Source: a virus
Taxonomy: Duplodnaviria; Heunggongvirae; Uroviricota; Caudoviricetes
Strand: one strand, 5' to 3'
Length of the DNA stretch: 36,905 nucleotides
IMG/VR virus record: IMGVR_UViG_2645727604_000018
Made by a program: the position numbers. This document shows, in pieces, positions 9,001 to 12,000 of this stretch (its first letter is position 1; every line of letters starts with the position of its first letter).

Positions 9001-12000
9001 GTGAACGTTATTATTTCTTTTTTATCAGATATGATAAATATCCCATGAGGAAGTAATAATGACAGTAGTAGTGATAACAAATGTTGTTTTTAAATCTCCC
9101 GGAAGGCAAAGAGAAATCTTTGCCTTTTTTAATTCATCCGTCTGTCAGACAGAGTTAAATATATCTTGTTATTTCTATTGCCAGATATGAGAGAAGCGTT
9201 ATAACAGAAGTTATCATTAAAACAAAAAAGGAGATAATAATGGTTTTATTAAATAACAAAAGAAAAAGCAAGAAAGGTTTCTCACTACTCGAACTACTAC
9301 TTGTTTTGGGCATCATTGCTGCATTAGTGGTAGCGGCTTTTATTGTGTATCCCAAGGTTCAGGCTTCACAAAGAGCACAGGCAGAATCCAATAACATTGC
9401 CACCATACAGGCAGGTGTTAAAGCGTTATACACGTCGGCATCAAGCTTTACTGGCCTGACAAATACTGTGGCTGTTCAGGCAAAAATATTCCCTGACAAT
9501 ATGTTAAGTGGGTCAGGAACGGCAGCTAAACCCATCAATGCCTTTAAAGGTAATGTGACGCTGGCTGCGGCAGCGACTGGTCCGTCATCAGCGACTGGCT
9601 CTTCTTTCACTATCACCTACGATAATGTGCCAGCAGCGGAATGTGTGAAGATTGCAACAGCGGCAGCAGGTAATTTCTACATTACCACGGTTGGAACCAA
9701 GGTTGTTAAAGCCGCAGGAGGAACACTCGATGTGGCAGCTACGGCAGCAGCATGTACGAATGCCACAAGTAATACATTAGTTTTCACGTCTATTTAATGA
9801 AGAGGGCGTAAGCCCTTTTCTTTCTTATTGCTAAAACAGGGAGATAATTATGATAAAGAATAAAGGATTTACCTTACTGGAAGTCAGTATTGTTTTAGGT
9901 ATTGGAACGCTTATCGCTTTTATGAAATTTCAGGATATGAGAAACAATCAGGAAGCGGTATTGGCTGATAATGTCGGAACACAGATTAAACAGCTTGGAG
10001 AAGCGGTTAACCGCTATATCAGTATTCGCTATGACAAGATATCCACACTGTCATCATCCAATAATCAAAGCAGCGATCCGGGGCCAAGAACCTGTACGTC
10101 TAATGGCTGTGAAATCACTTACCAGACGTTAATTAATGAAGGTTTGTTGCCTGTAGGCTATACAGGAACTAACGCGCAAAAAGCATCTTACAAAATTGTG
10201 TTAAAGCGTTCAGGAACCGCGCCTAATTACGTGATTAATGGCCTTATAACAACCGCCAGCCCGTGGGAAGAAGGTGGTCGTATTCGTTATGACCTGTTAG
10301 GTAAAGCGGTTCAGGCGGCAGGTGTTGATGGTGGTATGAGCAGAAGCACCAAGATCGCTTCTGGTTATGGTGGTCAGTGGAGTGAGAACTCTAACAGCTA
10401 CAATAACATCACGGGTGGTGGATTGCTGGCTTACCGCGTGGGGTATAACTCTTCAATGTATTCTGTTTACCTGCGCCGTGATGGGACGTTGCCGATGACG
10501 GGTGATCTGAATCTTGGTGGTAAGAGCATCAAAAACATCAAAGATATGACGGCATCAGGAACAACAACAACGGGAGCACTTAAGACAACGGGTAATGCGT
10601 CTGTTGCATCAGATCTGAGTGTGGGTGGAACCTCGACCCTTAATGGTCCTGTAAATATCAACAACAATCTGAGGGTAAAATCCGATACCTATCTGAACAC
10701 GCTTTCAACAACAGGTCTGGCGAAGTTTGGTAGTCGTATCGCGACGAATGGACTTAATCCAAACGATCTGCCTGCTGGCTGGGCTGGCGGTGTTCGCACC
10801 TATGATTTATATGCGTCAGGGACTGTTGGTGTAGGAACCGGGAAAACAGTTAAAGCTTACATGAATAATGCGGGTAATATTTATGCTTCAGGTAATCTTA
10901 CTGCCGGAACGATAAAATCCAACGGAACAATTGAATCAACAGGCAGAATCAAAGCAGGTGAATATCTTCATTTGAATGGTCAGGCAACGTTAAATGCGAA
11001 ATATACGCCTAATGGTCTGGTGGGGCGAGACAGTGCGGGTAGGATGTTATCGTGTGTCAGTGGTAAATGGCAGACAGCAAGTGGTGATGGTCTGAAAGGT
11101 ATTTTTATCACAATAACAGATCAAATCTCTGGTTATAAATGCGTTATACCGAATAGTGACACTGGGACATGTGCCTGCCCGGGATCAACGTATAGTCCTC
11201 AGTTTGGTTATATATCTGGAACTTTAATCGCTGAATACGATGAACGACGTTGTAGTGGTAGTAAGAACGAGCACTGTTATAGTAATATAAGAAGGTTATA
11301 TGCGTGTAGATAATGTTTCTGTCCATTTTATTTAAATGGTGATAATTGCCATTATCATATGTCATGGTAAATTAAAAGGGCCAAGAAGGCCCTTTATAAT
11401 TAAGGCGTTTGTTTCACCAGAATCTATTTAGTTAAAATAGAAATCATCATCACCTGATTCAACGACATTTGTTACAAATGTTCTACATACTATAAAATCA
11501 TCATCATTATTTTCAATAGATTCTGTAAAAAATGTATCCATAGCAGACTGCTTTTCATTAGATATTTCGTATTTTCTTTCACAGTTGCTGGGGGCTAAAC
11601 TGTAATCCTCATCTTGGTTCTCTATGACTCTTGTATGCGTTGTCCAAGTGTTGAGATAATCTTCATCATTAGGTTCTGTGGTAAATGTTTTTACGGTAGA
11701 GTTTGTTTTACTTGAAATTGTTGATGCGTTTATTTCGAAAGATTCACTATAGAGCATAGTATACGGTTTCATATTATATCCTTTTAATTTACAGCTAAAA
11801 ACATGCCTGACGGCGTGAATATGATTTCATTCACTGGATTATCGCTATAATATTGCAGTGAAATGGAAAACATGTATAGCGTGATTCCAACTAAAATCGA
11901 TCTGTATAGATATTTTTCGGCATTTCTAACTATACCTGCAAAATATCTGACGTCATCTTTTCTTGCTATCCAGTCACGATATATAGCCTTCGTTAAGGCA

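Follow-up and report, generated by a model that had tools for sequence, protein, structure and literature searches.

What does a short, acidic reading frame with a fourfold internal repeat encode? We addressed this question for an open reading frame (ORF) of 114 amino acids located at 11428..11772 on the minus strand of IMG/VR virus record IMGVR_UViG_2645727604_000018, a stretch of 36,905 nucleotides assigned to the Caudoviricetes, the whole of which is referred to here as the window. A first-pass annotation, made from the raw sequence without any tools, had noticed the repeats and offered two explanations for them: repeated core peptides or, alternatively, a repeated cation-binding or protein-mimic module. 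We are highly confident that what it encodes is a graspetide precursor of the thuringinin type, which corresponds to group 3 of the omega-ester-containing peptides. The gene starts with ATG and consists of a leader and four core repeats.

Graspetides are RiPPs, peptides made on the ribosome and modified after translation, in which a leader-guided ATP-grasp ligase joins the side chains of Thr or Ser (or Lys) to those of Asp or Glu (PMC8939145). The nucleophile is always found ahead of the acid in the sequence (PMC7823629). Group 3 of these peptides is the thuringinin group (bioRxiv 10.1101/2021.05.19.444834).

Sequence and register of the repeat ORF

The ORF was identified by ORF listing and its full translation reads MKPYTMLYSESFEINASTISSKTNSTVKTFTTEPNDEDYLNTWTTHTRVIENQDEDYSLAPSNCERKYEISNEKQSAMDTFFTESIENNDDDFIVCRTFVTNVVESGDDDFYFN. 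An AAGGA sequence sits 8 nt 5' of the ATG. The translated sequence is the same, without a single difference, as that of CAS09659.1 / WP_000806208.1 from the enteropathogenic Escherichia coli (EPEC) strain E2348/69, where RefSeq labels the gene as 'hypothetical protein' only. Searches of Pfam, PADLOC and NCBIfam gave no match for the precursor. With 23 Asp and Glu residues versus 8 Lys and Arg residues and a pI of about 4.1 the predicted peptide is clearly acidic.

All four units quoted in the first-pass annotation were found in the ORF, namely KTFTTEPNDEDY at residues 28–39, TWTTHTRVIENQDEDY at 42–57, DTFFTESIENNDDDF at 79–93 and RTFVTNVVESGDDDFYFN at 97–114. The pattern that they were said to share, T[FW]xT...D[ED]D[YF], indeed occurs four times. 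That such periodicity is unlikely to arise by chance was borne out as well: among 200,000 composition-preserving shuffles none contained two or more matches and 64 contained one, a figure that is optimistic, since the pattern had been set post hoc after the sequence had been seen. The register of the repeat has to be corrected, however. Aligning the homologues and TgnA, the thuringinin precursor of Bacillus thuringiensis serovar huazhongensis (as given in the supplementary data of PMC8939145), we derived a unit of 13 residues, T-x-x-T-x-x-x-E-x-x-D-x-D, which starts at residues 26, 44, 80 and 98. The third and fourth of the originally proposed units agree with this register, both of their Thr residues being those of the motif, while the first (TFTT) and the second (TWTT) are shifted by 3 and 2 residues, respectively. 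Two or more matches to the corrected motif were found in none of 300,000 shuffles. Even the looser form [ST]xx[ST]xxxExxDx[DE] is limited to these four sites when the whole window is translated in six frames.

Repeat 1, TVKTFTTEPNDED, is encoded at 11659..11697 (residues 26–38), as determined by regular expression and six-frame scan, repeat 2, TTHTRVIENQDED, at 11605..11643 (residues 44–56), repeat 3, TFFTESIENNDDD, at 11497..11535 (residues 80–92) and repeat 4, TFVTNVVESGDDD, at 11443..11481 (residues 98–110), all of them on the minus strand. We also compared the units at the nucleotide level, as had been suggested earlier. What they have in common is limited to the codons for the motif residues, with a mean column identity of 73%, which argues for a periodicity kept by selection on the protein and against a recent duplication of the DNA. 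Between repeats 2 and 3 lies the linker SNCERKYEISNEKQ (11548..11589, minus strand, residues 62–75), which can be aligned by eye with intact or nearly intact repeats of relatives, TYETRVIENSDTE in the homologue P0009 and STIETREIENSDQN in the Kluyvera precursor. Judged from this alignment the linker is probably a decayed fifth repeat.

At the N-terminus the precursor carries the putative leader recognition motif KPYTMLYSE (11743..11769, minus strand, residues 2–10), which was delimited by alignment and by inspection of 13 precursors. Its general form, [KR]PYxxxYx[ED], is present in all 13, one of which has an H at the last position. TgnA itself has the leader RPYIAKYVE and three exact copies of T-x-x-T-x-x-x-E-x-x-D-x-D.

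When 1.84 billion representatives were searched exhaustively with HMMER, just 11 hits reached E ≤1e-3. The full-length relatives comprise 109–151 amino acids, are 34–47% identical to the precursor and all start with MKPY[IV][ML]xYS. The search for homologues of varying repeat number, proposed in the first-pass annotation as a check, was successful, with 3 to 5 motif copies among the relatives. One hit of the exhaustive search, P0012 (1,744 amino acids, E 4.9e-6), was judged spurious because its long internal repeats are unrelated to the core motif.

Conservation was assessed in an alignment of nine sequences, made up of this precursor, seven relatives and TgnA. Invariant columns are P3, Y4 and Y8 of the leader, T44, T47, E51, D54 and D56 of repeat 2, T80, T83, E87, D90 and D92 of repeat 3, and T98, T101, E105 and D108 of repeat 4. 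The corresponding residues of repeat 1 (T26, T29, E33, D36 and D38) are unchanged among the five closest relatives. Invariant Thr, Thr, Glu, Asp and Asp are the nucleophiles and acyl partners expected of ester cross-links, so that a cation-binding or mimic module, which would call for general acidity and not for particular residues at fixed spacing, finds no support.

The feature is already known in the sense that it has been catalogued. Makarova et al. 2022 include CAS09659.1, listed as 'predicted protein' of E. coli O127:H6 E2348/69, in their 'final set of precursor sequences', where it is found in cluster 13, aligned with TgnA (PMC8939145). The matching ATP-grasp enzyme appears in Table S1 of the same study as 'Branch_Thuringinin', with the entries Iyer_Lee, Lee, cluster13 and gr_03. 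According to the flags used there the enzyme clusters with sequences of Iyer et al. 2009 and Lee et al. 2020, and the precursor was matched to the group 3 precursors or motifs of Lee. The peptide thus is a catalogued thuringinin-branch group-3 precursor. Reading the raw sequence without tools had rightly spotted a RiPP precursor from its internal periodicity. Of the two explanations offered at that time it is the repeated core peptides that hold, in view of the MvdC/MvdD-type ATP-grasp gene in the operon (see below), the leader and core shared with TgnA, the copy number of 3 to 5 and the cataloguing as a group-3 precursor.

The operon and its counterpart in Bacillus thuringiensis

The precursor gene is the last of three genes on the minus strand, preceded by an ATP-grasp ligase gene and a membrane-protein gene. 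The genes overlap or are 11 nt apart, and the region is very AT-rich with a GC content of 0.27–0.31. The putative ATP-grasp peptide macrocyclase is encoded at 12627..13547 (minus strand) as an ORF of 306 amino acids. The RefSeq start at 13532 yields 301 amino acids, annotated as WP_012578934.1, 'MvdC/MvdD family ATP grasp protein'. NCBIfam matches were obtained for TIGR04187 (2.9e-50), MvdD (5.9e-41) and MvdC (7.6e-41), and Pfam detected the MvdD pre-ATP-grasp domain (PF21068, 1.5e-8). From these sequence matches the enzyme is assigned to the MvdC/MvdD family. Among structures in the PDB it matched the graspetide macrocyclases 5ig8 (E 8.6e-32) and 5ig9 (E 8.5e-23), both deposited as 'ATP grasp ligase', as well as CdnC and AMdnB. 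5ig8 and 5ig9 we take to be microviridin MdnC and MdnB. A distant match was found with 7drm (E 6e-5, C-terminal half), presumably PsnB, the plesiocin ligase.

The membrane-protein gene occupies 11784..12637 (minus strand) and encodes 284 amino acids in E2348/69 (WP_000876710.1, 'hypothetical protein' in RefSeq). In the window a 1-bp deletion at about 12111 (12105–12115), where an A-run has five residues (A5) versus six (A6) in E2348/69, breaks the gene into two ORFs, one of 181 and one of 107 amino acids. Precursor and ligase are both encoded by intact genes, and there are 5 differences from E2348/69 over the 2.4 kb of the locus. No Pfam, PADLOC or NCBIfam match was found for the membrane protein. 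A hydropathy scan shows a single strongly hydrophobic segment of 19 residues (169–187). As there is one such segment only, the designation as membrane protein relies mainly on how the homologue in the thuringinin locus is described in the literature. The AlphaFold2 model of the protein is poor (mean pLDDT 53, pTM 0.47).

The same arrangement of ligase (298–301 amino acids), membrane protein (282–285 amino acids) and precursor (111–127 amino acids) was also found in Kluyvera georgiana, Brenneria roseae and Enterobacter quasihormaechei, and a metagenome contig retains the membrane protein and the precursor. In these four loci the precursors are 42–47% identical to that of the window. The precursor gene is linked to an ATP-grasp gene in every complete locus examined.

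Outside the enterobacteria, plasmid pHS18-2 of B. thuringiensis HS18-1 carries a four-core relative of TgnA, three cores of which fit the strict motif, with the same gene order. Its ligase is 40% (39.9%) identical to the E. coli ATP-grasp protein (pairwise E 1e-72) and the HS18-1 locus is the best match for the latter among 72,556 plasmids, the next matches reaching at most 29%. A profile of the enterobacterial membrane protein matched the 361-aa Bacillus protein encoded at the same position with a hhalign probability of 97.5% (E 6.6e-12, 241 columns). Taken together the matches of ligase, precursor and membrane protein indicate that all three genes are homologous to the HS18-1 thuringinin-type locus. 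As an aside, the first ~110 residues of the HS18-1 ligase ORF (1735–2916 of that locus, L008) cannot be aligned with the E. coli enzyme. This ORF is annotated as 'PH domain-containing protein' and adjoins an IS6 transposase, and the length given for the enzyme in Makarova 2022 is 221 amino acids. The ligase in HS18-1 may therefore be rearranged.

Group-3 features present at the E. coli locus are a clustered ligase of the thuringinin branch, the leader motif, tandem cores at the spacing of TgnA and the membrane protein of the cluster. Thuringinin (TgnA/TgnB) of B. thuringiensis is the closest of the known systems that we compared: it shares the tandem T-x-x-T-x-x-x-E-x-x-D-x-D cores, the [KR]PYxxxYxE leader, a single ATP-grasp enzyme, a homologous membrane protein and, as judged from the HS18-1 locus, the gene order ligase–membrane protein–precursor. 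The E. coli precursor differs in having four cores and what is probably a decayed fifth, whereas TgnA has three, and in its shorter leader of about 25 versus about 45 amino acids. Its spacers are irregular and lack the 'GPD/GPE' spacers of the Bacillus precursors, and the cassette resides in a Gram-negative enteric host on a chromosomal integrative element. Plesiocin (PsnA2/PsnB, group 2) resembles the system predicted for E. coli in its tetravalent precursor with four cores, each bearing two Thr-to-acid esters, and in its one ATP-grasp enzyme. Both the plesiocin core motif, TTxxxxEE, and the plesiocin leader differ from those of the E. coli precursor. Microviridins (MdnA/MdnB/MdnC, group 1) share the enzyme superfamily, guidance by a leader and a nucleophile ahead of the acid. 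In contrast, their precursor has a single core (TxKxPSD) and the leader PFFARFL, and both esters and an amide are introduced by two ligases, whereas the motif of the E. coli precursor is devoid of Lys and the locus has a single ligase.

Two possible regulatory elements flank the operon. A terminator-like hairpin, AAAGGGCC-UUCUU-GGCCCUUU, followed by a U-rich tail, is located at 11375..11395 (minus strand), 33 nt past the stop codon of the precursor and between the convergent pilV and precursor genes. Its fold has an energy of -18.8 kcal/mol (z = -3.6), and none of 200 shuffles was as stable. The hairpin was revealed by folding and was not flagged by a consensus terminator scan. A candidate promoter of the operon, TTAACC-17-TATAAT, was found by consensus scan with 10 of 12 matches at 13577..13605 (minus strand), upstream of the ATP-grasp gene. 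Promoter-like sites are no more common here than in shuffled sequence, and this one is regarded as a candidate only.

Predicted product, expression and alternative readings

By analogy with thuringinin and plesiocin we propose the following mechanism. Through its short N-terminal leader, KPYxxxYxE, the precursor would dock on the ATP-grasp ligase, the gene for which lies two genes upstream. This enzyme would spend ATP to activate the side-chain carboxylates of Glu and Asp, which would then be attacked by the Thr hydroxyls of the same repeat, giving side-chain-to-side-chain ester (lactone) rings. With two esters per repeat, as in thuringinin, the four repeats would yield a tetravalent product with up to eight esters. 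Formation of all eight would lower the mass by 144 Da, from 13,270.1 to 13,126.0 Da. The membrane protein is presumed to aid in export or maturation. All graspetides characterised to date are protease inhibitors (Makarova 2022, PMC8939145), and a multivalent inhibitor of this kind is the most likely product here. The same analogy underlies what we infer about the chemistry, about how many esters form and how they pair, and about leader removal, export and target.

Some observations weigh against this assignment. With the NCBIfam equivalog models the ATP-grasp protein, a divergent member of its family, does not reach the curated cutoffs (171 versus 350 bits). A double-glycine (GG) cleavage site is missing from the precursor, and the cassette contains no protease or transporter gene. 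The frameshift in the membrane-protein gene may impair the pathway in the source strain, or it may be a homopolymer sequencing error. Furthermore, we found no paper reporting modification, structure or activity of this E. coli peptide.

The frameshift also leads to a different view of the locus, according to which the cassette is a decaying remnant in the source strain, where the precursor is intact but the pathway is dead and gives no mature or exported product. In addition to the split in the 284-aa gene, degradation is seen in the integrase next to the cassette and in the island's MobQ relaxase, and the locus is infrequent: at ≥95% identity the 2.4-kb segment is present in just 92 of 5,426 complete E. 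coli genomes (about 1.7%), in all of them on the chromosome. Precursor and ATP-grasp genes remain intact, however, with no more than the 5 differences to E2348/69 mentioned above, and indels in homopolymers are a common sequencing error. We therefore consider a dead pathway in the source strain a possibility to be taken seriously, though it is rather unlikely. Much harder to reconcile with the data is an unmodified acidic repeat protein acting directly, by binding cations or by mimicking DNA or protein, for instance as an anti-restriction-like decoy on a mobile element. The acidic composition and pI would fit such a function, as would the position of the gene on an integrative element near conjugative pilus and defence-type genes. 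What is conserved, however, is Thr, Thr, Glu, Asp and Asp at the exact spacing of the thuringinin core and not the overall charge. The family leader motif and the linkage to an ATP-grasp maturase in every complete locus likewise speak against it, as does the lack of a Pfam or PADLOC match for the precursor, and we consider this explanation extremely improbable.

A role of the graspetide could also be sought within the mobile element. The peptide might be cargo that serves in phage defence or in conflict between elements, for example by inhibiting a phage protease, in place of acting as a secreted inhibitor of external proteases. Consistent with this the position of the cargo varies between loci, next to a GmrSD_N/NsnA-like and HEPN pair here, next to SIR2 and HerA in Kluyvera and in a prophage-like region in Enterobacter quasihormaechei, with integrases nearby in all cases. 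Co-location on an island is weak evidence, however, and the membrane protein suggests export. PADLOC gave no match for the cassette and we found no published defence phenotype. A defence function thus appears very unlikely to us.

For the thuringinin-type graspetide, published expression data point to a possible connection with virulence. A microarray study of the Ler regulon in EPEC E2348/69 lists the IE3 genes E2348C_2111–2114, all of them as 'hypothetical protein' (PMC3891560). There, E2348C_2111 was activated 4–5 fold by Ler, E2348C_2112 3–4 fold and E2348C_2113 2 fold. E2348C_2114 was repressed 2 fold, and its potential promoter is immediately divergent from an activated one (PMC3891560). 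We mapped these locus tags by counting the coding sequences annotated in RefSeq, starting with the precursor and ending with pduF (E2348C_2129 in PMC3891560). Very probably E2348C_2111 is the precursor, 2112 the membrane protein, 2113 the ATP-grasp protein and 2114 the divergent small ORF at 13884..14150. The mapping is consistent in gene count, gene orientations and island name.

If the mapping is true, EPEC transcribes the operon, and its expression responds to the master regulator of virulence. One could then envisage that the operon belongs to the regulon of Ler, the master regulator of the locus of enterocyte effacement (LEE), and that its product is a protease-inhibiting, tetravalent graspetide which is brought into play along with the type III secretion virulence programme. 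We regard this scenario as speculative and, on balance, unlikely, and the response to Ler may be a mere relief of H-NS silencing on very AT-rich foreign DNA. Should it be true, the peptide might shield secreted or surface virulence proteins from serine proteases of the gut or host, or modulate host proteases, and this would mark the first case of an enteric pathogen in which a graspetide has a role. A link between the graspetide catalogues and the Ler-regulon study was not found by us in any paper. Taken together, the catalogues and the Ler data offer a testable hypothesis, namely that of a protease inhibitor co-regulated with virulence genes.

Genomic setting of the cassette

The three genes form a small mobile graspetide cassette, which is also carried by the prototype EPEC strain E2348/69. 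An integrative element carries the cassette at its end. One flank is formed by pilS and pilV, which encode type IVB pilins, the other by a degraded P4-type integrase, a GmrSD_N/NsnA-like and HEPN pair, a second integrase and a tRNA-Asn gene. The pair is encoded at 16004–17835 (plus strand) between the two P4-type integrases and consists of a DUF262/GmrSD_N protein (PADLOC NsnA, 5.6e-83) and a HEPN protein of the RiboL-PSP type. It is likely to be an anti-phage defence module. The integrases are arranged in tandem at 14287–15802 and 17902–19236 (both on the minus strand), near the tRNA-Asn gene at 19350–19425 (minus strand), the inner one being broken into two ORFs. This suggests that two islands are stacked at one tRNA site. 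The MobQ relaxase gene of the island (6422–7890) is a pseudogene in E2348/69, too.

The cassettes of the relatives (4489–7558 of locus L004, the whole of locus L006 and 5211–6425 of locus L005) occupy differing mobile contexts. That of Kluyvera georgiana adjoins a pair of SIR2-like and HerA genes, that of Enterobacter quasihormaechei lies within a prophage-like region, and the cassette of Brenneria roseae is found beside a pilV-like gene and an integrase.

Past the tRNA-Asn gene, at 19526–36905, the gene order of the window departs from that of E2348/69. This part contains an mtfA-like peptidase M90 gene, tRNA-Ser(cga) and a lambdoid prophage. Among the prophage genes are those for an integrase, a RecE-like exonuclease of 813 amino acids, an S24 repressor, a DUF968 protein and a Q antiterminator. 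An AT-rich ORF with a FRG domain at 29382–30716 resembles prophage cargo.

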